The notes under the pieces are model-generated. The model worked only from the letters and a program-made list of their open reading frames with translations, searched no databases and was not told the DNA's origin. From positions 2,162-66,161 of IMG/VR virus record IMGVR_UViG_3300002220_000279: a DNA stretch of 64,000 nucleotides; one strand, 5' to 3'. Below are positions 4,357 through 50,028 of this stretch, piece by piece. A program made the position numbers and the translations under genes. Position 1 is the stretch's first letter; each line of letters begins with the position of its first letter. The stretch is from a virus (Duplodnaviria; Caudoviricetes).

Positions 4357-4363
4357 TATATAG
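4357..4363 (-). promoter_or_regulatory. candidate late promoter CTATATA
   Basis: Motif lies between the capsid terminator and the next gene start; recurs upstream of other late units. Confidence 0.35.
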
Positions 4364-22385: not shown

Positions 22386-22925
22386 ATGGACAAATATGAG
22401 AAAAATATAATAAACTCTATTTGGTTTTTAAGCAAGTGCAGTAATATTGATGATTATCTTGAATCTAAAAAGAATCTTGCATATAATTTCACCGCATTAT
22501 GCCAAATTATTAAAGAAATGAGTGAAAATCAAGATAGTCCGGATGATATAGAATCACAGACAAAGAGTATTAGATTTATGTATACTTTATACGGAACAGA
22601 GATACTCAAAAACATATCTGTATGCATTCGGGTAATATGGGAAAACGATAGAGCTAAATTTAATAATTACTTGTCAAGCATTGGTTATTTTTCTAATAAC
22701 GTTTATAGAACAAAGAAAGAAAGTCCTGTTGGATTACATTTAGAACATTTGACTACTTGTAAAAAATGGGTAGACAATATGGATTGTGCGTTTCCTAGAG
22801 AATTTATGGCACAGTTCCACACTGACCTACCCGAAATAGTAGACAATTTGTCTTATAGTAAAGTTAATGTATGTGCAGTATTGAAAATATTCTTATTCTG
22901 CCTGTTTATCGGAGATTTCAAGTAG
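22386..22925 (+). CDS. hypothetical protein
   Basis: 179-aa ORF ending TAG; 3' end overlaps the convergent rmlD end. Confidence 0.6.
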   Translation: MDKYEKNIINSIWFLSKCSNIDDYLESKKNLAYNFTALCQIIKEMSENQDSPDDIESQTKSIRFMYTLYGTEILKNISVCIRVIWENDRAKFNNYLSSIGYFSNNVYRTKKESPVGLHLEHLTTCKKWVDNMDCAFPREFMAQFHTDLPEIVDNLSYSKVNVCAVLKIFLFCLFIGDFK

Positions 22926-23768
22926 TTTAGCATCAATTAATTTATTGATATCATTTTGAAGCGTTATTTTCCAATTATCTTCATTTTCAAATAGCGCTTC
23001 AATTTTTTTTGTACTCAATACAGAATATTTTGGGCGAAGCGGGAATTGTTGATAATCAGAATACGTTGTTGGCTCTATTATACATGGAGTAGCCGATAAC
23101 CTCTTTATTTCACTTACGTAGTCAAATGCACTAGCGGGATTATTGCTTACCACATTATAAAGGCTATTACCATCAATTTCAATGAATCTCTCAATAGCTT
23201 TGGCAAGTGTAGATGACGAGGTGGGGACACTTATCATGTCAACAGGAGATACAATTTTATCTTTGGTCGATAAAAGGTTAATCATATTGGTCAAGAAATT
23301 TTCTTTTTGATATCCAAACAGTCACGATGTGCGTAGAATAAGATAATTCCTTAGCATAGACATGATAACTTGCTCTCCCATCACTTTAGATAGTCCATAG
23401 TGATTGATAGGAGCGCAAATGTCATATTCTGTGTATGGAGAGCTTTTGTCTCCCCAGAATACGAAATTGGTTGATATATGGATAAGTTTAATGTGGTCAT
23501 TATCCGATATTGCGGAGCAAATGTTTTTAACTCCCCAATGGTTAATGTTTGAACATTCTTTTTTCTCGGTTTGTGCTTTGGTTACATCGGTATATGCGGC
23601 ACAATTGATAATTATGTTGGGTGAATATTCGCCAACACAAGATTTAATTTGCTGATAATTAGTAATATCGCATTGTGACTTGTCTAAAAATACTCAATCA
23701 TTCTTGAAAAACTCCCGTTCTTGTAGGGTTTTTCCTAATAATCCATTACTTCCTAATACTATGTTCAT
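22893..23768 (-). CDS. rmlD: dTDP-4-dehydrorhamnose reductase, 291 aa, TGA=Trp at 23694 and 23322
   Basis: VLGSNGLLG, CDIT, IINCAAYTDV, IHISTNFVF, YGLSKVMGE, ILRTS[TGA]LFG, RPKYSVL. Confidence 0.92.
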
Positions 23769-23814
23769 TTTTACCGCCTATTACTTTATATAATAACTCA
23801 GATTTTATTTAGCA

Positions 23815-23828
23815 TAACTATATAGTTA
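23815..23828. promoter_or_regulatory. 14-bp palindrome TAACTATATAGTTA, candidate bidirectional late promoter
   Basis: Perfect palindrome between divergent rmlD (-) and the 23843 gene (+). Confidence 0.45.
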
Positions 23829-23842
23829 AAAGGTATATAAAA

Positions 23843-24217
23843 ATGATTAAGAACTTAGAAATTAAAATTCCGCTAACTATTAAAAAAATAAATTTTGGTT
23901 CTCAAGGCAATACATATCTTTTCAGATTCTTTGACACGTTTCCTTTCAGACAGATTAATTTAGTGGAAGAGGGATTTGATAATGTTATTTTCACAGCGGT
24001 AAATTCAGACGATGAAAGCCAACTACTATTTAAATCAACCGTAGAGTTAAGTGGCTCTTTGTCATCAAGTATGACGGCAGACATACCATTGGTCCTAGAG
24101 AGGGAACACTTAAAGCGTGGAACTGCCGACCTTTCTATAGAAATTAATTCTTTGTCAGGTTCTTCCATTACATGTAAATACAAGCAATATTTCCCAAGAC
24201 TTATCAATATAGTATAA
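23843..24217 (+). CDS. hypothetical protein
   Basis: 124-aa ORF, AAAGG upstream. Confidence 0.6.
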   Translation: MIKNLEIKIPLTIKKINFGSQGNTYLFRFFDTFPFRQINLVEEGFDNVIFTAVNSDDESQLLFKSTVELSGSLSSSMTADIPLVLEREHLKRGTADLSIEINSLSGSSITCKYKQYFPRLINIV

Positions 24218-24238
24218 ATTTTTCATAAAGGGTTCACA

Positions 24239-26395
24239 ATGTTTAGTAAAAACTTTTTAAAAGAAGATTGACTTACAGACAAGCATAAAAGAGAATATTT
24301 AATCGGAGTTAGTTCCGAAATTATCAAGATGGTTAACAAAAAACAATCATATGGTGAGATAATTGAATGACCGTGGGCGAATAAACAGAAATACCCTGCT
24401 ATACTTTATACCCCAGACCCCCTAACAAAACACAGCACATACCTTTTAATATTAATTGTTCCTAAAAGCGCCAGTATAGATTCTGCAGGTGGATTTAGCG
24501 TAAAGGGAAATTACATTATTGTATATTTGTATGTTGACGATATAATTTACAATAATTTCAAAAAAAATAACAAAGGTGTTAGTTCAGACGGATGGAGCAA
24601 TTTAATAAGTCGCTCTATAAAAGATGACAACAAAGAGTATTTCGACAGTGCATTATACCATGAATTAGAACATTGGTATGATTATCATATAAATAAGTTT
24701 AATTTTAATGCATATAAATACGGCATGATTGATGATAAGGTTACTCCCCAACAATTAAGTGCTTATCACATACAGCCATTAGAATATAATGCCTATTACG
24801 GCAACTTTATTCGAGATTTAGAATCGCTAATTAGAGAACTTAAAGAAGAAAGTGGAAGGGAAAGTGAGTTTGTAAAAAAGATGGATTCAACGCCATTTAA
24901 CGATTTTGTAAATATTGTCGATGCTATGACAAAGGGTGACAACGCTCCCCTATTTTATCATTCAGAATTCTGGAATACCATTTTACACAACGCATATTGA
25001 AAAAAGAAAACCCTTAAACGATTATATGGGTGGTATAAAAACGTTTTCCCACAGATTATAGCAGAGAGACGAAACATTACTTACACTCCATACGAAATAA
25101 AAACACAAGTTCATTATTATATGTCAATAAAAAAACAAAGTTATAAAAGTGATGCAACCAAATACGGATATCCTGATAAATTTTTACTTGCTATCGATAA
25201 AGATTTTAATGATTTTGACGAGAATAGAAAGAATTTTATCATCAACAATAAATTGGCAGAATTAGTTCCTAATAAAAATTATGACCCAAATGGGGAGAAT
25301 TTTGATGAGTGGTGGAACGTTAACTATAAGAATGTATGGCTCTATACTAAAAAGGGTGAAGAATTTGCCGATATGGATGAGGAGATATTGCCTAGTTATG
25401 CGTTGTTATCAGAATCTCCCATACCATCTTATCACGGAGGACCAAATGCTTTTGACAAATTTGATGCGTATTATATTAATACTGGTGAACAGGCTCAAGC
25501 GTTTGGATGAGGGTTATATTTTACCAGTAATCCTAAAATAGCGGAAGATTATGCTATTAAACTTGGTAGTTTTAGAAAATTTAAGATGACCCTTAATGGA
25601 GTAGATATATTAGACAACCCCAATTGAGTTAATACTATAAGTAATTATTACATATCTCATTATGGTCAACCAGATTTAGATGAACAAGATATATACGCTG
25701 CAACACATGTTTATATGAATTACTTTATAGAGTTTATTTATCGGGCATCTACTAAAACTGTTAACCAGGCTTTAAAGGACACGGATGACATAATTAGTAA
25801 TAGTTTTGAGCTTGCTGAATCCATTGAGGGAGATTACCATTCTGCTCGCGAATATGTTAGAGGTCTAGAAAACATTATTCGTAATAAAGAAATTAAAATT
25901 TTTAGACAGAAACCAAACATCAGAAATGTTTATCACGTAACTCTATGACCAGATAAAGAGCCTAATTTGTTATCTTGGACAGAAAAACCTACTGAACAAC
26001 AATTTGTTACTATTTTTAACGAGTGGAAAAAAAGTGGGTTACAGTATCCGCTTAAAACGGTAGAAGAGTGAGAAAAGGATGGAGTGCCGTTAAAAGACTA
26101 TAACGATGGAATGAATGATAATGATTGGGTAATAAATATTCCACACGGATATAATAGTATGCAACCCTCTCTGCCATCTGGCTTATTGGTGTTTAATAAT
26201 GGAGAGAATCTTTATAAAATAATAGAATCAGCCCTTAATTCGCCAATGGAAGCGAGTCATTTGTTATTAAGAGCTGGAATAGATGGAATAGTATATCCAT
26301 CGGGTATAGTAAGTGGTTATCGGGGAGAAATGGGTCAAAATTTTGTAGTATTTGACGACAATCAAATAAGAATAGAGCGAAACAAACAATTCTAA
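24239..26395 (+). CDS. multidomain zincin-like metallopeptidase + ADP-ribosyltransferase-like (polyvalent-protein type), 718 aa, seven TGA=Trp
   Basis: TGA at 24269, 24368, 24998, 25508, 25625, 25946, 26069 all in one frame; ALYHELEH; SYHGG..FDKF...GEQAQAFG[TGA]GLYFTSN; LRAGIDGIVY...NFVVFDDNQI. Confidence 0.85.
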
Positions 26396-26453
26396 TAACA
26401 TAAATTGATATGGAGTTATTTTATATAAAAAGAATAAGCATAGCGAGGTTTAA

Positions 26454-28451
26454 ATGCAAGAAACACTACTAATTACTGGGGGAGCTGGGTTCATAGGACA
26501 TCATTTCGTAGAACACTGGCTAAGGAATACTGATTGAAATATTGTTGTATTTGATAAACTGTCTTATGCATCAATGGGATTAAGCAGGTTAAGAGATATC
26601 AACGCAATTAATAATCCGAGAGTGAAAATTTTTACTAACGATATCAGAATGGATATTTCTGATGGGATTGTTAAAGAAATTGCCAACGAAATAACTTATA
26701 TCGCACATCTAGCAGCTGAAACACACGTGGATAAAAGCATACTGGACCCTAAATTGTTTGTTGAAACTAATGTATTGGGAACGTTTAACGTTTTAGAATT
26801 TGCTAAAAAATGTCCAAACCTTAAAGCATTTAATTATTTCAGCACAGATGAAGTGTATGGTCCTGCCCCAGACGGAATACTTTTCAAAGAATCTGATGGA
26901 TTAAATTGCACAAACCCTTATTCCGCTAGCAAGGCGGGAGGGCAGGAATTAGCCAGCTCTTTTGCCAATACCTACAATATGCCTTTGTTTATCAGCAACT
27001 GTCATTCTGAAGATACGCTCTGTTGGTCAAAAAATGGATTTGTGTCTGTAGATAATTTAAAAGTTGGAGATGAGGTATACACCCTTAATGACAAACAAGA
27101 GATAGAGTTAAATAAAATTGATAATATTATTCAATATGATTATATTGGAGATATGATAAACCTTGAGGGAAATTCATATTCTCAATTAGTGACTCCGGAG
27201 CATAGAGTGTTGACAAAAAAAAGATATGGGGAAAAACAATATACAGCTAAATACGCCATAGACTTGTTAAATATTGGGAGAGCAGAACGGCATTATGTTC
27301 CTACAAGCGGGAAATGGTCGCGTGGCAAGAGGGATAGTGTAAATATAAAAAAGAGTATTCGTTTTTGTAAATTTCACTACAACTCTAAAGATATACCAGA
27401 CACACTAAACACTTATGATTTATTTGAATTTTTGGGATGGTTTATATCGGAAGGCGGGTCAAATGACCGTGGAGGATTTAAAATTTCGCAAAGAAATGCT
27501 AGAAATAAAAAGAATATAATAAAGTGTATTGAAAGATTAGGATTTTCTTATGGATTAAATTCTGATGACATTCAGATGAATTCGGTTAAGTTTTGTAAAT
27601 TTTTAAAACAATTCGGCAGGAATTCTAGCGAAAAACAAATACCAAGATGGGTATTAGAATACGATGTTAGATATTTGGAAAGGTTGTTTCATTCGTTGAT
27701 GCTTGGAGATGGAACTCGCGTTAGAAGAGGTTGGAGGTATTACTCTAAATCTAAAGAATTGTGTAACCAGGTTGCAGAATTGTCAATTAAATTGGGGTAT
27801 TCTGCAAATGTCAAATCGAGAAAATGTTTAAATCCGTCAAAGACGTGTGAGAGTATTCAATATTATACTAATATTTGCAAATCTAAGAGTAGTTTGGAAA
27901 AAAGTAATATATCGATTCAAAAGTATAGAGGTAAAGTATGGTGTCTGAAAGTTAAAAATGGTAATTTTTTCGTACAACGTAATGGAAAAATATGTTGCTC
28001 CGGGAACTGCATGAATGTTTTCGGAGAAAGACAACATCCCGAAAAATTTGTTATAAAGTGTATAGCGAAAATTCTGCGTGGTGAAACAATTTATATACAC
28101 GCTAATAATGATTATCAGATAGGAACTCGCAATTATATACACGCAAGAAACGTAGCGAAAGCCATAGAGTTTTTGTTTACAAATTTTAACGTTAACGAAA
28201 GGTATAACATTAATGGAGAAAAGGAAGTTAACAATTTAGATATGCTTAAGTTTATTGCTGGCATTATTGGTAAAGAACCAAAATATGAAATAGTAAATTT
28301 TGTAGAAGAAAGACCTGGACACGATTTCAGGTATGCATTGGATGGCAGTAAAATGGAAAATATGGGGTGGTCCATTCCGATGCAATTTGAACAATCACTA
28401 ATGAAAACTGTGCAGTGGACACTAGCGCACCAAGAATGACTACAGGAGTAG
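26454..28451 (+). CDS. rmlB: dTDP-glucose 4,6-dehydratase with intein; TGA=Trp at 26535 and 28437
   Basis: ITGGAGFIG, TD[TGA]NIVVFDKL, HLAAETHVD, STDEVYG, PYSASK, MNVFGERQHPEKF, RPGHDFRYALD, WTLAHQE[TGA]LQE*. Confidence 0.9.
27000..28007 (+). mobile_element. intein (336 aa) with LAGLIDADG homing endonuclease
   Basis: Starts CHSEDT; VTPEHRVL block B; FLGWFISEG and LMLGDG motifs; ends FFVQRNGKICCSGN with +1 Cys. Confidence 0.9.
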
Positions 28452-30323: not shown

Positions 30324-30351
30324 TTGCTTTTTAAGATTTGTTGATTATATT
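30324..30351 (+). promoter_or_regulatory. early-type promoter TTGCTT-N16-TATATT upstream of the sigma gene
   Basis: Same motif and spacing as the repeated promoters at 34.7-57.9 kb. Confidence 0.65.
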
Positions 30352-30378: not shown

Positions 30379-31041
30379 ATGTTTATGACTAGAGCAGAAA
30401 ATCTTAATGAATTAATAAGGCAGTATAAGAAAAACCCTAGCGACAAAAACTTTGAAACAATTTATAAAGCAATGTTGCCGGCTATTCAAGATGTATTGTG
30501 GAAAAAATTGGGACTAACTAAAAAACAATATGTTAGGTATCGAGATGATATCCACCAACAGGCAGTTGTGGCTCTCCATAAAGCACTGAAAAAGGTAGAG
30601 CCCGGTCCTGGGTCAACTACTTTTGTATATTTGCGTGAATATATTAGGGGAACGGTCCACAATTTTATGCCGAGACTTACGGATTCAACTCCACCGAATC
30701 GCGATATGCTGTCTCATAAAACGAATAGTTCGTATTATTCTCACCATTTTGGTGTAGATAAGCCAGTTAATTTAGACAATGACATGGATACATCTAATAC
30801 AAGGGATGTTTGCACTAACAGTCCTAACCACACCGTACAGTGGTTTGATACGTATATGCAAAAGAACCTGTCATCAAAACATTATAAGATATTCAGAAAC
30901 TATTATGTGGACAGAATGAGTATGCAGGAAATAGCGAATAAGCATGGTGTAACGAGACAGGCAATATCCCTTTGTATGAAACATCACATAGAGCCAACCA
31001 TTAACAATGCTAAACAACTAACTCATATTTGGAGTATGTAA
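30379..31041 (+). CDS. phage RNA polymerase sigma factor (sigma70 family)
   Basis: Region-2-like QQAVVALHKALKK...FVYLREYIRG and region-4 HTH MSMQEIANKHGVTRQAIS. Confidence 0.8.
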   Translation: MFMTRAENLNELIRQYKKNPSDKNFETIYKAMLPAIQDVLWKKLGLTKKQYVRYRDDIHQQAVVALHKALKKVEPGPGSTTFVYLREYIRGTVHNFMPRLTDSTPPNRDMLSHKTNSSYYSHHFGVDKPVNLDNDMDTSNTRDVCTNSPNHTVQWFDTYMQKNLSSKHYKIFRNYYVDRMSMQEIANKHGVTRQAISLCMKHHIEPTINNAKQLTHIWSM

Positions 31042-31646: not shown

Positions 31647-32879
31647 ATGATTAATAAGTACGAGACAAAGCATGAACAACGCATACTACATTTAGTTGAC
31701 AACTATGCCAACGAATCTGAACGCATAGAACTAAAATCTTTTTTTTCTAATATGATAGATAATATCGATTTGTCAGAAGAAGATAGACCTATAATCGCAT
31801 TTTCTGTTCCGGCTGAAACAGGAACATCTCATTGGAGATTACTTGAACCACTTTTTTCCCTATGGAAAGAATACAGGGAACAATTCTTGTTTCTTTATTT
31901 TGAGGGAGAATCAATGAACTATAACTTGTTCAATTATGTAGATATTTGGGTACAGCACAGAGCAGGAGCATGGCACGCCAATGCTGTAGAATATAGAAAT
32001 CAATATCCCAAATCTGAAAGTGTGCCTGTAATAATACACGATGTTGATGATAATGAATTCGACATTCCTCCCGAACACCCTCTACACAAAATTTGGATTG
32101 AACACAAGAAAGACCAAATGAGCAAAACACAGATAACTAATAGTGATTATGTTACTACAACTACAAAGGCTTTAAAGAGAGCATTTGATAAATTCAACCT
32201 AAATCAAAAAATTAAAATCATTCCTAACGCTATTAACTTTGATATGAAAAATTGGAATTTAGAATACACTAGACCTGAAAAATACAAAGATAAAACTGTA
32301 TTAGGATGGAGCGGATTGTCCCACCCGGAAGATTTGGTATATTTGTCAAAAATATTCAAAGAAATCAACAAGAAATACGATGAAAAAGTATACTTTGTTG
32401 TAGCGGGTGTGAACAAATGGAAAGAATCGGACAAAATAAAGTTCGAGGAATCATATGAGGGTTTAATACATACAAGTTTCAAACCTCTAATTGATGCAGG
32501 TGTTATAGACATATTAGAGCCAAAACCTTTAGCAGAATATATGAAGTATTATCAGTTATTTGATTTGAATACAGCATACGTAGTTAATCGTAAGTGGAAC
32601 ACGTATAAAAGCAACATTAAAGCGATGGAATCGGGAGCTTTGGGTAAAGTTACAGTTATGAGTAACGTTGGACCATATAACGATTTTTCTAACGAGTTAC
32701 CCATTTCAATAGCCGACAAAGTTAATTTGATTTGTTCAAAAAATATAATGTCAGAGTGGATAAAGAATCTTTCGTACTGGATTGATAATCCTGACCGCAG
32801 AGAGATAGTAGGCAATCAGATTAGGGATTATGTTAGAGAAAAATACCACATTAAAAACGCAAACGAATTAACACATTAA
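31647..32879 (+). CDS. GT-B glycosyltransferase
   Basis: GTSHWRL..P, IHDVDD, DYVTTTT, IPNAI, LGWSG, KSNIKAMESGA...VMSNVGPY. Confidence 0.8.
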   Translation: MINKYETKHEQRILHLVDNYANESERIELKSFFSNMIDNIDLSEEDRPIIAFSVPAETGTSHWRLLEPLFSLWKEYREQFLFLYFEGESMNYNLFNYVDIWVQHRAGAWHANAVEYRNQYPKSESVPVIIHDVDDNEFDIPPEHPLHKIWIEHKKDQMSKTQITNSDYVTTTTKALKRAFDKFNLNQKIKIIPNAINFDMKNWNLEYTRPEKYKDKTVLGWSGLSHPEDLVYLSKIFKEINKKYDEKVYFVVAGVNKWKESDKIKFEESYEGLIHTSFKPLIDAGVIDILEPKPLAEYMKYYQLFDLNTAYVVNRKWNTYKSNIKAMESGALGKVTVMSNVGPYNDFSNELPISIADKVNLICSKNIMSEWIKNLSYWIDNPDRREIVGNQIRDYVREKYHIKNANELTH

Positions 32880-32896
32880 AAACGCAAACGAATTAA
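32847..32896 (+). repeat. 25-bp tandem duplication at the glycosyltransferase 3' end
   Basis: cacattaaaaacgcaaacgaattaa x2. Confidence 0.9.
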
Positions 32897-32932: not shown

Positions 32933-32940
32933 CTATATAG
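32933..32940 (+). promoter_or_regulatory. candidate late promoter CTATATAG upstream of rpsU
   Basis: Same motif as at 15317 and 23818. Confidence 0.35.
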
Positions 32941-32967
32941 TTGCAAGATTTTCAATATGGAGAAAAA

Positions 32968-33159
32968 ATGACAATATTAAGTAAGGGTGAGCAAGAGAGC
33001 TTCTCTACACTACTAAACAGATTTAAGAAGAAAATGCGGAAAAGCGGTATACTCAGAGATTATTCAGAATCTCTTGAATACGAAAAACCATCTGTGCAAA
33101 AGAAAAAGCGATATAAAAGATGAAGAAATAAAATGAAATACGAAAACGCAAAGGACTAA
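32968..33159 (+). CDS. rpsU: ribosomal protein bS21, 63 aa with TGA=Trp at 33121 (51 aa if TGA stops)
   Basis: ESFSTLLNRFKKKMRKSGILRDY..EYEKPSV.KK is the bS21 signature; GGAG RBS. Confidence 0.88.
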
Positions 33160-33164
33160 CATCC

Positions 33165-34604
33165 ATGCCGCAAAAGATTATGAAAGAGATAGTAAAACGT
33201 GCTTTTCTATTAGAGCAGGAAATAAACAACAACAGAGATAAATACACATTATCTTATGATTCCGATTATGATGAAGACCAATTCGACTTATTTTTGGATG
33301 AATGGAGCAATTTGTGTAATTCTGTATTAGGACAACCTCCTTTTGAAGTATATGCGATGGGATTTAACCTTGATTGGAAAAAATCCTCTGGTGACTTGAG
33401 ACAAACTTATCCAGATGCCACAGCACTCTTAAAAGGGTTGATTGGCTCGTATAAAGCAGATTTTGTGGGAATAAATACCAGTGTGAACGCAAAGGGAATT
33501 AAGTTTATAGAGGTGTCCGCTTATCATCACGATTCAGCGTATACTGGTGTTCCTACACGTATCGAAATATATAACGCAAACGAATTCAGCGGTGAAATCC
33601 AAAACACAGTTGGAGAAATATCTGAGAAAAAAGGGGGTGATGAAATTCTAGAAGCTTTGCATATCTTACCACACAGAGTAGATAACCGCAATCCTATTCC
33701 TGCACATTTACGTAAGGGATTTGATAAAGAAGAGTATAAGGATATTCCGATAGATACTATTGGAACATTTCCCAGCTTAAAAAATGGGAAAAATTATATA
33801 TGTTATAGGTGGAAATCCCCAGAGGGTCACTGGATATATAATGCAATTCAAGAAGATTCTAATGAACCTATAATTCATACTGGTTATGGCAGTCCTGAAT
33901 ACATCTTTAATATTAAGGGTGTTTATACGTATGTTCACGATGCAATGAAGAAAAGGCGGGGTAATAACGTTTTTGGCGAGAATGCCGATGTAGAAAATCC
34001 TCAATTATTTAGTGTAGATAACGTGACGGAAGTATGTCAACAACTAAAGGATGGAATTAAAGCTCCTGCAGTGGGAGTATCACACTCTACGTTGGGCGGT
34101 AAAGACCGAGTAACAATTTTAATGTCTGTATCATTAGATAAGCGTGAGGATTGGAAAAATCAAATCTTTGAAAATTCCAGATATTTTAGGTTGTCTCTAG
34201 AAAGAAACGGCAGATTGCAATTATTTGTCAAATCAGGTATACCGATAAAACTTCGTTCATCTGTATGCAATTCTATAGAAATGTGTATTGCTAAAATAAA
34301 CAAATACATAAACGAAATTAATTCTCTTATGCCAGATAAAACAGTGTCGGAATCGAAAACACTTAATGAAGAATCCGCAGAGACAAGATTAAAGTTTTTC
34401 AAAACACCAAACGGTGCCAAAGTGTTTTGGGATGGGAAACCTGTAGCTAGTTTGCTAAAAATGGGGAATGGTCATCTAGACGGCTATAAGGTTGAGTTGA
34501 CACAAGATAATATATTAGATGGTGAGTGGGTTGAAACCTTATCTGATGCTAAAAAAATGTTAGCCACTTATTTCCATACCAAAGAAACTGCGGAAATGCA
34601 ATAA
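33165..34604 (+). CDS. hypothetical multidomain protein
   Basis: 479-aa ORF ending TAA, followed by a terminator. Confidence 0.75.
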   Translation: MPQKIMKEIVKRAFLLEQEINNNRDKYTLSYDSDYDEDQFDLFLDEWSNLCNSVLGQPPFEVYAMGFNLDWKKSSGDLRQTYPDATALLKGLIGSYKADFVGINTSVNAKGIKFIEVSAYHHDSAYTGVPTRIEIYNANEFSGEIQNTVGEISEKKGGDEILEALHILPHRVDNRNPIPAHLRKGFDKEEYKDIPIDTIGTFPSLKNGKNYICYRWKSPEGHWIYNAIQEDSNEPIIHTGYGSPEYIFNIKGVYTYVHDAMKKRRGNNVFGENADVENPQLFSVDNVTEVCQQLKDGIKAPAVGVSHSTLGGKDRVTILMSVSLDKREDWKNQIFENSRYFRLSLERNGRLQLFVKSGIPIKLRSSVCNSIEMCIAKINKYINEINSLMPDKTVSESKTLNEESAETRLKFFKTPNGAKVFWDGKPVASLLKMGNGHLDGYKVELTQDNILDGEWVETLSDAKKMLATYFHTKETAEMQ

Positions 34605-34626: not shown

Positions 34627-34660
34627 AGACTGTTGCTTTATAGTGACAGTCTTTTTTTTT
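34627..34660 (+). terminator. Rho-independent terminator at the zone boundary
   Basis: AGACTGTTGC-TTTATA-GTGACAGTCT stem with G-U pairs, followed by a T-run. Confidence 0.75.
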
Positions 34661-37892: not shown

Positions 37893-39342
37893 ATGGTAGT
37901 TAATAATTCTGTCATAACCAAAATCAAACAAGCCATACTCGGTACTCAGTTTGAGGATAAAACTTACGTAGCTGGTGGCTTTGTCAGGGACCTGATTATG
38001 GGTAAAGACAATAAGGATATTGATATCGTTGTAGAGCTCCCTAATGGTGGAGTAGAGTTGGCTAATTTCCTGCACCATGCGATAGGAGCATCAGAACCTA
38101 CTGTTTACAATAATAGTTGTGGAACTGCACAAGTAGTTATTGATGGAGAGAAGATAGAATTTGTTATGACTCGTAAAGAAAAATATGAGTTTGGCAACCG
38201 CACACCCCTTTGTGAATACGGAACTATTTATGATGATGTTAGACGTAGAGATTTCACAATCAATTCTATTCTATATAAGATTTCTACAGGGGAAATTATA
38301 GACCTGTTGGGTGGAAAGAGAGATATTGACTGCGGAAAAATCAGAACCAGCAGTTACCCTGATGAAACTTTCCAAGACGACCCGTTGAGAATTATGCGCG
38401 CAATACGATTTGCCACCAGACTAAACTTTGAAATCGAGGAAGAAACTTTTTATCAGATATCCAAGCACGTATTTGCGTTGAAAATGATTTCTGTTGAGCG
38501 CATAAGGGATGAATTTAATCAGATTATAATTGACCCCAATTTCAAGGTTGGCATGAATCTACTTCGCACATCGGGTATCCTTGATTTTATGTGCGTAGAA
38601 TTGAGTAATCTCTATAAATTGGGACAAGGGAAATATCATACTAAAGATGCGTGGGGTCATACTCTCGATGTAATGAAATTGACTAAACCAACACTGGAGC
38701 ACCGGATGGCTGCCTTGTTTCACGACAGTGGCAAACCACAAACTATTTCTAAATCTGAACTATGGTCACCAAATAGTTTCAGGGAAAATCTTTACCAATT
38801 TCCTGAATCGGTTTAGGTATAGCAATGATTTTATAAAAATGGTAGTACCTGCTGTTCAATTGCATATGAATTTTGTTGATGGAATGCTGGACAAAACAAT
38901 CCGCAAGAAAGTTAATCAGTATGGTAAAGATATTATGCTGTTTGCTTGCGATTTGGCTAAAGCCGATAGTAAAAGACCGGAAAGGCGGAGGATAGTTTAT
39001 GATATCCGCAGATTCATTGAAACAGATAATTTTACCATACAACCAAAGGTTATTCTGCCAGTGAACGGAAATGAACTGATGGAAAGATATAATCTGAAAC
39101 CAGGTCCAAAGATTGGAGCGATGGTAGAATATATTAAGGAATTGATGTTTGAAAATCCTAATATATCTAAAGAAGAAGTGTTTGAAAAAATAGATGAAAT
39201 AAACAGAACAAACCCAATTAAGTGGACAAGAATAAAAGATATAGAAAGGGAACTGGTAAAATCATCTACCGCCTATGTGCTAAATGGAGCAGTTCCGATA
39301 ATAACCATAGATTATATGGACGTTTTGAAAACTGACCAATAA
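37893..39342 (+). pseudogene. cca: CCA-adding tRNA nucleotidyltransferase (HD domain), frameshifted near 38760
   Basis: VAGGFVRD..DIDI, DVRRRDFTINS, DDPLRIMRAIRFA, ISVERIRDEF, HTKDAWGHT, LFHDSGKP in frame 1; YGHQIVS...HM...DLAKAD, PGPKIG in a different frame. Confidence 0.85.
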
Positions 39343-39805: not shown

Positions 39806-40795
39806 ATGAACGATATGGAACTAATAGTAGACAATTACTTACTATATAAAATTATAACAGGTTCTCATCTTTATGGCACAAATACCGAAAACTCAGATAA
39901 TGATTATTCGGGGGTATTTCTTGAGCCATTTGAATATATTGCTAGTCCGTTTAAAAATATTGAAGAAATCAATTTATCTGTCCCTAATAAAGACGTTAGT
40001 GGCAAGAATACTTTCCTAGCTGTAGATGTTAAATATTACGGTTTGAAGCGTTTTATAAAATTGGTTTCGCAGTGCAATCCGAATATCATTGAGTTTTTGT
40101 TTGTACCAGACAATAAAATCTTGTATTTATCCAATGACTTTAAATCAATTCTGGATAATCGTGAGTTGTTTCTAACTCAAGAAATAGCAAGAAGATTTAT
40201 GGGGTATGCCTTTGAACAAGAAAAGAAAATGTATATAAGGTCAGAAAATTTTACGTTAATCCATCAGGCTTGGAAAAGTCTCAAAGAAGAATACCCTAAT
40301 TTGCCGCAGAATACCCCCATAATGAAAACAAAAACTGCAGACAAATATTTGGAATCTACTAGATTCTTACATCAGCACAATCCTGATAATGCGGAGTACT
40401 TGTACAAATGTGGTGATTTGCAATTCGGAACAACTTTGCACATAAAAAAGGTTATGAAAATGTTGTCTGAAAGAATACAGAAAGCATCGCACAGGACCGA
40501 TATGATATTGCATAAGGGATATGATTATAAGTTTGCCAGTCACGTTGTTAGACTGCTTGGTGAGGGATATCAACTAATGACAGAACATACGATAACATTT
40601 CCAATAATTAATGTTGATGATGTTATAGATATTAAGCGGGGGTTGTATACTATTGACAGGGTAAAAGAAATTATTGATAATTGGAAAGAAAAGTTTAGAT
40701 ATGCGGAAGAGCGTTGTGATTTACCGCCTAAAGGCAGTAATTTGAATAAAATAGAACAACTGACTTGGAAAATACAGCGGAATTGGTATGAATAA
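39806..40795 (+). CDS. DNA polymerase beta-superfamily nucleotidyltransferase (RlaP/NrdC.11-like)
   Basis: ITGSHLYGTNTENSDNDYSGVF, CNPNIIEFLF, GYDYKFASHVVRLL. Confidence 0.8.
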   Translation: MNDMELIVDNYLLYKIITGSHLYGTNTENSDNDYSGVFLEPFEYIASPFKNIEEINLSVPNKDVSGKNTFLAVDVKYYGLKRFIKLVSQCNPNIIEFLFVPDNKILYLSNDFKSILDNRELFLTQEIARRFMGYAFEQEKKMYIRSENFTLIHQAWKSLKEEYPNLPQNTPIMKTKTADKYLESTRFLHQHNPDNAEYLYKCGDLQFGTTLHIKKVMKMLSERIQKASHRTDMILHKGYDYKFASHVVRLLGEGYQLMTEHTITFPIINVDDVIDIKRGLYTIDRVKEIIDNWKEKFRYAEERCDLPPKGSNLNKIEQLTWKIQRNWYE

Positions 40796-47505: not shown

Positions 47506-48817
47506 TGTTTGTTATAAAGTGTCATTTGTGTGGAAAGAATTATGATGAAGATGACCAAGAATTTATAAGTTGTCCACACTGTGAACACATAAAAGAAATA
47601 GATGTTAAAACTCGGGGAGGGGAAACATATACTGCATTGTGTATGTCCGATTCGGATGAGAGGGTTAACACTCAAAGTGGTTTAACTTACGCAGAGGCTC
47701 TAAAACATATTGAGAGTTGCTCTTGTAAGTCATGTTCCCAATATGCCAAATGCGGTGGGTTTCTAACACACTGTGGTGATGACAGAGATGAACAGGAATG
47801 GTTTCTAGTGCGTAACATATTAGATACGGCTTGTGGAGCAGAGTGGACCATTATAACAGATGCAGAATGGCTTCGTTTATTGACATAATCTATATAAACT
47901 AGGAGAAAAAATGAGAAGAGTAGTAAGGTGTCCGTTTTGTAACGGTGTAGGCAGTTATGAAGTACAAAAGAAAGTATTTTTTAACATGCTTTTGAAGAAT
48001 GAAAAGAAACAGTGTCCAAATTGTTCCGGCACAGGTAAAGTTGAACATATACAAAGCAGATGTAAGGTTTGCGGTCAATTCGTCACAACGACAAGATTTC
48101 ATAGACACCATAAACAAATTGTAGAGGTTTAGAAATGAAATTCAAATATATCATGTATAATGACCACTATGGCACCGGCATTATTGCGGAGGCTATAAAA
48201 GACCCAAAACATATTTTGTGGTCGGCTATTCCCGAAAATGACAGTTATAAAATGTTTAGGGATGTGTGGGGGTATGTAGAAAAGGATGAAGAAATTAATG
48301 AATACGAGATGGATTCCGAAATTGTAAAAAGGATTTTTAACGATAACTACGTAAGGATGGGTAAACCTAACAGTATGTCATTAGCATTTTACAATATAGA
48401 TAATGGCACAATAGCAAACATTTCAAATGTAGGTAAGCTTGAAAAAGCCGAACTATTATATGCAGATGGCTACGATGTTCTAGACCCAAATAAAATTGAG
48501 TTAACTATACATACTACTTTCGAATAATGTATAGGGCTGTTGGAGTTATTATTATAAGTGAGAACTTTTAAGGTGAGGAATAAAAAATGGTCTGGTTTCA
48601 CATATTGTTTAAACCATCTAATTTTGTCAAAATTAATCCTATGTGTGTTTTGTGTCATAATTGCGAGTATGATAGGGATAAGTTCCACTTAACTAAAACA
48701 CATCTATGCTATATTTTAAACACGCATATTGACCCGGCAGATGAGCCAAAGTGTAATAACAAATTTGAGATGATAAATTTCTTGGAACGATTAATCTTGG
48801 TTATTTGGGGAAGATAG
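47502..48817 (+). other. four hypothetical genes (47502-47888 Zn-finger, 47911-48132 DnaJ-type CxxCxGxG finger, 48135-48527, 48587-48817)
   Basis: CPFCNGVG / CPNCSGTG repeats in 47911-48132. Confidence 0.6.
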
Positions 48818-48819
48818 TA

Positions 48820-50028
48820 ATGGAAAAAAATAATTATCTGTTCACTAGTGAAGCAGTATCACATGGTCATCCTGATAAAATATGCGACCAAATATCTGAT
48901 TCTATTCTTGATGCCTATTTGGAACAAGATTCCAATAGCAGGGTGGCAATCGAAACCCTCGTTACTAAAAACAAAATAGTGGTTGCTGGAGAGATTAGTT
49001 CGTCAGCAAAGGTTAATGTCAAAAAGGTAATCAGAAACACAGTAAAATCAATTGGATATGATAGAAAAGAATATGGTTTTTGGCATAAATCCAAGATTTA
49101 CAATTTTATTCATAAGCAAACTCCCGAATTGCAGAATAATGCCGATACAGATAACGCAGGTGACCAGGGAATTATGTTTGGATATGCTTGCCGGGAAACT
49201 GATGATTATATGCCAATAGCATCATCATTAGCTAATTATATCTTGTATATGATACACTATGTTGACAGAAATGGATATATAAAAAAACGTATCCTTTACC
49301 CCGATGCGAAATGTCAGGTTACTATTGAATATTGTGATGGAAAACCACAAAAGATTAATAACATCTTGTTGTCGGTCAGTCACGCTAAATTAATAAGTTC
49401 AGATTTTTGTACGTATGGGTCATTCTGGGATGACCTAAAGCATATGATAAGATATTATGCCAAAGAGTTTGTAAAAAATAATTGCTCACTATATCCAGAA
49501 TTAGCAACAGAGCCATTTGATATTATTATCAACCCTGCCGGCAATTGGAACAATTTCGGTCCCGCTGCGGATTCCGGAGTTACTGGCAGAAAAATAGTAA
49601 TTGATGCATACGGTGGATGCGCTCCTGTCGGCGGTGGAGCGTTTAGCGGAAAGGATGGGACAAAAGTTGATAGGACTGCCGCTTATATGGCTAGGCATAT
49701 AGCAAAAAATATAGTTCATAACGGTATAGCAGACTCCTGTTTGGTTCAGTTCGCGTATATTATCGGTAAGCAATTTCCCATATCTATTAATGTTTTTTGT
49801 AATAATCCAAAATACCCTGAAAAGCAAATTGTTGAAATGATTGAAAGTAATTTCAATCTTTCCGTATCGTGTATGGTAACTTATTTAGGCATGCACGACA
49901 GTAATCACGCATTTAACAGTGTTTATTGTCATTTTGGTTTGAGCGCTACCCCAATGGGAGATGACGATATACGACCGTGGGAAAAATTGATAGAGTTGAT
50001 GCCAAACCCAGTTGCGAAAGAGGATTAG
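48820..50028 (+). CDS. metK: S-adenosylmethionine synthetase
   Basis: FTSEAVSHGHPDKICDQISD, AGDQGIMFGYA, YPDAKCQVT, DSGVTGRKIVID.YGG, GGGAFSGKD.TKVDR. Confidence 0.95.
   Translation: MEKNNYLFTSEAVSHGHPDKICDQISDSILDAYLEQDSNSRVAIETLVTKNKIVVAGEISSSAKVNVKKVIRNTVKSIGYDRKEYGFWHKSKIYNFIHKQTPELQNNADTDNAGDQGIMFGYACRETDDYMPIASSLANYILYMIHYVDRNGYIKKRILYPDAKCQVTIEYCDGKPQKINNILLSVSHAKLISSDFCTYGSFWDDLKHMIRYYAKEFVKNNCSLYPELATEPFDIIINPAGNWNNFGPAADSGVTGRKIVIDAYGGCAPVGGGAFSGKDGTKVDRTAAYMARHIAKNIVHNGIADSCLVQFAYIIGKQFPISINVFCNNPKYPEKQIVEMIESNFNLSVSCMVTYLGMHDSNHAFNSVYCHFGLSATPMGDDDIRPWEKLIELMPNPVAKED

Follow-up and report, generated by a model that had tools for sequence, protein, structure and literature searches.

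The stretch of phage DNA analysed here (64,000 nt, hereafter the window) carries a gene for ribosomal protein bS21 whose reading frame meets a TGA at codon 52 and then stays open for 11 further codons up to a TAA. This arrangement raises the question of whether the TGA ends the protein, is decoded as tryptophan, or switches between a short and a long product. The last possibility was put forward in a preliminary description of the window, according to which forms of 51 and 63 residues could tune ribosomes differently and thereby couple recoding to initiation control.

Genomic context and related loci

The window represents nearly all of a 66,161-nt linear IMG/VR record (34% GC; about 31% complete according to CheckV), which is a fragment of a T4-like phage. 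A minus-strand block at 1-15.3 kb encodes the major head protein, prohead protease, portal and adaptor, and is followed by replication genes and then by sugar-nucleotide genes. The early-looking region at 34.7-64 kb encodes an S-adenosylmethionine synthetase, a CCA-adding enzyme, RlaP, a Mre11/Rad50-like protein and a NUDIX protein; the synthetase gene (48805-50028, plus strand) is a full, three-domain one. The closest cultured relatives of the capsid are Flavobacterium myophages, at 39.5% identity.

Relatives of the locus were found through protein cluster tables, in which the 51-residue bS21 call had its cluster mate on two more JGI contigs, L003 (179.5 kb) and L004, each from a sample of its own. 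Scans of viral contigs with the window bS21, its neighbour and an alignment returned no relatives, nor did a scan of metagenome contigs. The closest bS21 sequences are those of L001, L003 and L004 only, all others being at most 51% identical. The flanking proteins of L003 and L004 are 46-81% identical to those of the window, with 75% nucleotide identity in the glycosyltransferase gene. Across the glycosyltransferase stop codon 5' of bS21, the window has a 25-nt sequence (CACATTAAAAACGCAAACGAATTAA) perfectly duplicated in tandem (32847-32896, plus strand), which L003 and L004 lack.

The bS21 gene and its product

The features of the gene and its immediate surroundings are as follows.

32959..32962, plus strand: Shine-Dalgarno (SD) core GGAG of the bS21 gene, with a 5-nt spacer
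32968..33159, plus strand: bS21 coding sequence, 63 codons and TAA with TGA read as Trp (Pfam, PHROG, PDB, AF2, Foldseek)
33121..33123, plus strand: in-frame TGA, bS21 codon 52, read as Trp; also in L003 and L004
33124..33156, plus strand: tail codons 53-63, RNKMKYENAKD, continuing the C-terminal helix
33165..34604, plus strand: gene 3' of bS21, 479 residues, no assigned function; ortholog in L001

The gene starts with the ATG at 32968, and 51 sense codons precede the TGA at 33121-33123. The TAA at 33157-33159 is separated by 5 nt from the ATG of the next gene at 33165, whose SD sequence AAAGGA (33150-33155) lies inside the last three bS21 codons. The preliminary description of a bS21 with a TGA at codon 52, the tail RNKMKYENAKD, a TAA and a 5-nt gap agrees with these coordinates and with the Pfam result. 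The product matches Ribosomal_S21 (PF01165) over residues 8-54 (profile positions 6-53 of 55), its score of 40.8 bits exceeding the cut-off of 27; residues 1-60 match PHROG 21469 'ribosomal protein S21', and its best PDB sequence matches are bacterial bS21 chains. The core motifs R-F-K and K-P-S are present, with E10, R18, F19, K40, P41 and S42 in columns that hardly vary across 46 aligned sequences. The basic C-terminal helix beyond K-P-S, with its conserved R-K/R-K/R, belongs to the read-through form alone.

Structural modelling pointed to the same identity. The AF2 model (pLDDT 90.8) contains helices at residues 12-26, 28-36 and 41-62, the last of them unbroken across W52. In a Foldseek search of the PDB, the first 12 matches were all bS21 chains (probability 0.89-1.00, TM 0.57-0.70, 53-65 columns aligned); the small size of the protein keeps the E-values weak (0.02 or more). 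With 10 K/R and 2 D/E in 21 residues, the C-terminal domain is strongly basic, and position 54 (F. johnsoniae numbering, ungapped from S42) carries an invariant Asn instead of the aromatic residue of the Bacteroidia type. In these respects the protein is like the bS21 of SD-using bacteria and unlike the Bacteroidia type, which sequesters the anti-SD. W52 and Y58 were considered as stand-ins for the Bacteroidia Tyr54, which stacks on A1534, and were rejected because position 54 is Asn and the domain is basic.

TGA as a tryptophan codon in part of the genome

Several comparisons bear on the meaning of TGA in this phage. In RmlB (dTDP-glucose 4,6-dehydratase, 26454-28451, plus strand), TGA codons 28 and 662 align with conserved tryptophans of 2hun and 8du1. 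In an ART-like gene, TGA and TGG are exchanged between the window and L003 at eight orthologous Trp columns, and in the ortholog downstream of bS21 the TGG of W223 in the window corresponds to the TGA of W372 in L001. Reading TGA as sense also turns fragmented ORFs into tightly packed genes. These comparisons demonstrate, at the level of sequence, that TGA stands for tryptophan in a subset of the genes of this phage. The ART-PolyVal-like gene spans 24239-26395 of the window (plus strand) with 7 TGAs and 2659-4485 of L003 with 8.

The window RmlB has an insertion of about 333 residues (residues ~185-517, between ...FISN and CMNVFG...) with a LAGLIDADG match, and this insertion is intein-like. 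The L003 ortholog has 329 residues without it, so that within this group of phages the element is a mobile one.

The in-frame TGAs are unevenly distributed. Of 29 in the window, 28 fall in the head block and in 22893-28451, where TGA makes up about 30% of the Trp codons, and the remaining one is that of bS21. In the 34.7-64 kb region, about 107 Trp codons are all TGG, and TGA occurs at gene ends only, partly in ATGA stop-start overlaps. The genes flanking bS21 are likewise free of TGA (29 TGG, 0 TGA). Among the genes, those for the capsid and scaffold have no TGA, and those for the portal, protease, sugar-nucleotide enzymes, ART-like protein and bS21 do. This partition is also kept in L003: in the TGA-free genes, both lineages use TGG at all of 28 orthologous Trp columns, and every TGA in rmlD and RmlB is conserved between lineages. 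The all-TGG early region and the 28 unswapped columns indicate that the partition is maintained by selection, and it is as would be expected if the TGA-free genes had to be translated while TGA is still a stop. The ART gene set against its TGA-free neighbours is a clean within-clade case of synonymous TGA/TGG use together with code-partition selection. The earlier view of TGA read-through in this phage is borne out, as Trp decoding in some genes and strict avoidance in others.

No suppressor tRNA (UCA), RF1 or TrpRS was found in the 66-kb record (~31% complete) or the related loci, and no tRNA gene was found in the record or in ~45 kb of related loci; the record also lacks other Rfam families. 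The window encodes a CCA-adding enzyme (PolyA_pol head domain, 37893-38816) and RlaP (39806-40795), and a relative encodes RtcB (L005, 15475-16755). The presence of tRNA maturation and repair genes, yet no tRNA gene, suggests that a tRNA set, possibly including a suppressor, lies in the missing part of the genome.

The codons after the TGA

An open stretch of 11 codons after a TGA is unsurprising at 34% GC, where a rough estimate puts its chance at about 0.5. The tail is therefore taken as real because it is conserved, not because it is open. In L003 and L004, TGA52 is kept and followed by the open tail KNKIKYDNLKKD-TAA, with 6 nt to the next ATG. Between the window and L003, the codon changes in the bS21 body are 15 synonymous and 3 non-synonymous, and codons 53-60 of the tail differ at 7 nucleotides, 6 of them in third positions, amounting to 4 synonymous and 3 conservative changes (R/K, M/I, E/D). 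The single 3-nt indel near the end of the gene keeps the frame. This protein-like divergence behind a shared TGA indicates that the TGA is older than the split of the two lineages and that the tail has been under selection at the protein level since then. A sequencing error at TGA52 was dismissed, since the same TGA is found in three assemblies from different samples.

More distant comparisons agree. The syntenic bS21 of L001 is 65% identical and has AAA (Lys) at codon 52, followed by QNKIKYDN; its codons 54-60 differ from those of the window at 5 nucleotides, all in third positions, and the two tails share the pattern N-K-x-K-Y-D/E-N. The HMMER alignment pairs ...KR-W-RNKMKYENAK of the window with ...KR-H-AKKLARENAR in the C-terminal helix of E. 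coli bS21. The 102 wider homologs all run past column 51, the median excess being 18 residues, and columns 53-55 across them form a conserved R-K/R-K/R. In addition, the long form alone produces a compact junction with the next gene (5-6 nt or overlapping) in all three lineages, and the SD sequence of that gene accounts for conservation at codons 61-63 only. The substitution pattern in L003/L004 and the homology to L001 and E. coli identify the codons past TGA52 as genuine coding sequence, the continuous model helix through W52 agrees with this, and we conclude that codons 53-63 are translated and under selection. Close homologs that all ended at residue 51 would have spoken against the preliminary view, but they carry either the TGA and a tail (L003/L004) or a lysine (L001). 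The tryptophan that alignment was hoped to reveal at column 52 is no family feature: the 102 homologs have A, R or K in this column, never W, while E. coli has H and L001 has K.

Promoters and the timing of bS21 expression

Three further elements bear on when the gene is transcribed.

30324..30351, plus strand: early-type promoter TTGCTTTTT...ATTATATT, one of nine copies
32933..32940, plus strand: CTATATAG, candidate late promoter element, 35 nt 5' of the bS21 ATG (motif sharing, conservation)
34627..34652, plus strand: terminator-like hairpin and T run, closing the unit

The early-type promoter is sigma-70-like (TTGCTTTTT...ATTATAYT), with 9 matches, all on the plus strand, against 0.28 expected. 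The copy at 30324 stands at the head of a unit made up of a sigma-like gene, a dNMP kinase gene and a glycosyltransferase gene. Between that copy and 34627 no terminator-like site was detected, so early transcripts from this promoter could run into bS21. The gene 3' of bS21 (33165-34604) is probably co-transcribed with it. The sigma-factor-like gene (30379-31041, plus strand; PHROG 351 and 1740, Sigma70_r4) lies directly after the first of the nine early-type promoters, and its product is a candidate for the factor recognising the late motif described below.

The second signal, the CTATATA core, is found 21-57 nt 5' of head-block and other TGA-bearing units at 4357, 7560, 9939, 13817, 15318 and 23819 on the minus strand and at 23818 on the plus strand. 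The motif takes the form CTATATA(A/G/T), and the site at 23818/23819 is palindromic. The 30-kb early region has a single similarly placed copy (47890). In L001 and L003, CTATATA(A/G) stands at the same place 5' of bS21, the L001 intergenic sequence being otherwise diverged; the SD block TATGGAGA of bS21 is conserved in both as well. The T4 late promoter is TATAAATA, and by analogy the short, AT-rich CTATATA motif would be a late promoter.

In L001, the order is the motif, bS21, an overlapping gene with 10 TGAs, and only afterwards an early-type promoter. This overlapping gene (4942-6918 of L001, 658 residues) is the ortholog of 33165-34604, with 39% identity, and its TGA load differs: 10 TGA and 2 TGG in L001 against 0 TGA and 7 TGG in the window. 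The shared and conserved late motif, together with the arrangement in L001, suggests that bS21 forms, with its downstream gene, a short late unit set between early and middle genes. However, the early-type promoter upstream conflicts with the late motif, and late timing of bS21 is accordingly put forward as the probable reading of mixed signals.

One product or two

Taken together, the evidence is best explained by late expression of bS21 from a T4-like phage in which TGA means Trp late in infection, with one product of 63 residues, and we regard this explanation as very probable. The recoding would be of the code-4 type in a presumably standard-code host, and TGA52 would be decoded as Trp in the same way as the 28 other in-frame TGAs of the window. 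The protein would then have a C-terminal helix continuous through W52 to about residue 62 and, by analogy with other phage bS21 proteins, would join host 30S subunits late in infection. A side effect of TGA52, or perhaps its purpose, would be that full-length bS21 appears only once TGA suppression is on, and this restriction would hold even with early read-through transcription from 30324. Several observations count against the explanation: no suppressor tRNA, RF1 or TrpRS was found in the record (~31% complete) or the related loci, the genes on either side strictly avoid TGA, the tryptophan at column 52 is unprecedented among the 102 homologs, the early-type promoter without a terminator means that bS21 may be transcribed while TGA is a stop, and the motif taken as a late promoter is short and AT-rich.

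That TGA52 is a true stop, with a 51-residue bS21 alone and the 11 codons either a decaying relic or a non-coding spacer holding the next ribosome-binding site, is in our view scarcely tenable. The public gene callers give 51 residues in three assemblies, the TGA, only 12 codons from the end, is placed like those that close early genes (36971, 39561, 51009 and 59006), and a stretch of this length could well be open by chance. However, the tail shows coding-type substitutions between TGA-bearing lineages whose neighbouring gene retains 75% nucleotide identity, keeps its frame across the 3-nt indel, and is homologous to the L001 and E. coli tails, and the ribosome-binding site of the next gene covers codons 61-63 only. 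Selection on the tail between TGA-bearing lineages removes the relic. A host that itself uses code 4, so that there would be no switch, TGA would always be Trp and the product would always have 63 residues, is very unlikely as well. It would account for the failure to find suppression machinery on the phage DNA examined (record ~31% complete) and for the consistency of TGA as Trp wherever this is testable. Against it stand the all-TGG codons at 34.7-64 kb (a chance of ~0.7^107, given 30% TGA in the late set), the 28 unswapped columns in TGA-free genes as opposed to free exchange in the ART gene, the confinement of TGA at 34.7-64 kb to gene ends and ATGA overlaps, and the Flavobacterium hosts of the nearest cultured capsid relatives. 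Flavobacterium is a standard-code host, and a standard-code host is also what the avoidance of TGA in the early genes of this phage would imply.

The two-form idea, in which an early product of 51 residues and, after the switch, one of 63 residues would each bind ribosomes and affect SD-dependent initiation in different ways, we judge to be quite unlikely. A 51-residue product of early read-through transcripts is physically possible: the promoter at 30324 and the lack of a terminator-like site before 34627 allow early transcription, the neighbouring genes avoid TGA as under the standard code, and TGA52 is kept in two diverged lineages. This retention is not special, because every TGA of rmlD and RmlB is also retained. 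Because L001 has a sense codon at position 52, the clade as a whole does not depend on a TGA gate. Missing from the short form is the basic motif columns 53-55 of the family, and none of the 102 homologs stops there. Nor does the use of SD sequences suggest a need for such tuning: an SD core lies within 20 nt of the start in about 60% of early, middle and late genes alike, compared with 7.7% of random positions, and this equal use gives no sign of initiation needing to be retuned between phases. Local programmed read-through was considered separately and rejected, as no read-through-promoting RNA structure was found 3' of TGA52 (MFE -4.5 kcal/mol; z = -0.08 against shuffles). The A1 protein of phage Q-beta is a case of this kind, in which programmed UGA read-through yields two isoforms from one mRNA, at a low fixed fraction and with an unchanged code. 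Both have a UGA near the ORF end and an in-frame extension, but the TGA of the window gene is a general late-gene Trp codon without a local stimulatory structure.

Removal of the bS21 C-terminus in F. johnsoniae provides the mechanistic precedent for two forms, since it shifts the mRNA preference of ribosomes and alters their selectivity for SD-containing mRNAs (McNutt et al. 2023, PMC9976891). However, the truncated protein was present on only 11-16% of ribosomes in that study (PMC9976891), so the phage short form may simply fail to bind. The F. johnsoniae deletion comprised residues 43-64 and left a protein largely absent from ribosomes, whereas the short form in the window lacks only the last 12 residues. 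Moreover, the F. johnsoniae effect needs the Bacteroidia-specific sequestration of the anti-SD by Tyr54, known from the ribosome structure (Jha et al. 2021, PMC7797042), and the window protein has no obvious equivalent. A related reading makes TGA52 a selected gate, with an early 51-residue form that lacks the rRNA-anchoring tail and would be inert or different on the 30S platform, and a 63-residue form after the switch; this too is unlikely.

The single 63-residue late product remains the preferred reading, and the preliminary description is modified accordingly. Its long bS21 and the split code behind it stand, as does its remark that this phage uses strong ribosome-binding sites, given the frequency of SD cores. 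The working short form has found no support so far, being without columns 53-55 and shorter than all 102 homologs, and the same SD use in early, middle and late genes gives no sign of the proposed coupling of recoding to initiation control.

Relation to known phages and implications

Phage-encoded bS21 is known in large tailed phages (Mizuno et al. 2019, bioRxiv 10.1101/174177; Chen et al. 2022, PMC9723584), where it has been proposed as a substitute for host bS21 on the 30S subunit. The window gene encodes the same small basic bS21 of a large tailed phage, but itself has a recoded TGA, whereas Chen et al. reported no stop-codon reassignment in their bS21 phage genomes (PMC9723584). In another phage group, the same authors found bS21 grouped with late genes and expressed late (PMC9723584).

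The recoding resembles that of the TGA-to-Trp phages of Borges et al. (bioRxiv 10.1101/2021.08.26.457843), with low GC, in-frame TGA mostly in structural or late genes, and standard-code compatibility in the remaining genes. There, too, a suppressor tRNA may escape detection, having been found in 35% of code-4 phage genomes. Unlike the window phage, their clades come from gut microbiomes, and unlike their pattern, the capsid and scaffold genes of the window are TGA-free. There is no occurrence of bS21 in that paper. The preliminary description knew of no published link between phage bS21 and recoding, and our literature search for S21/bS21 combined with recoding or an alternative code likewise found no paper joining them. 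Phage bS21 and TGA-recoded phages are each already documented.

bS21 is the commonest ribosomal protein gene in phages, and that of the window lies on the recoded side of a split code, between genes that strictly avoid TGA. Standard gene callers end it at 51 residues in three public assemblies; surveys of phage bS21 C-termini therefore need code 4 for recoded phages if bias is to be avoided. A modest point added here is that the recoded codon speaks, on sequence grounds and without transcriptomics, for full-length bS21 being a late product, in agreement with Chen et al. 2022 (PMC9723584), whose phages belong to an unrelated group. If the gate were true, the change of code would directly time the remodelling of host ribosomes, and a TGA timing gate, if shown, would link two separate routes by which phages take over translation.
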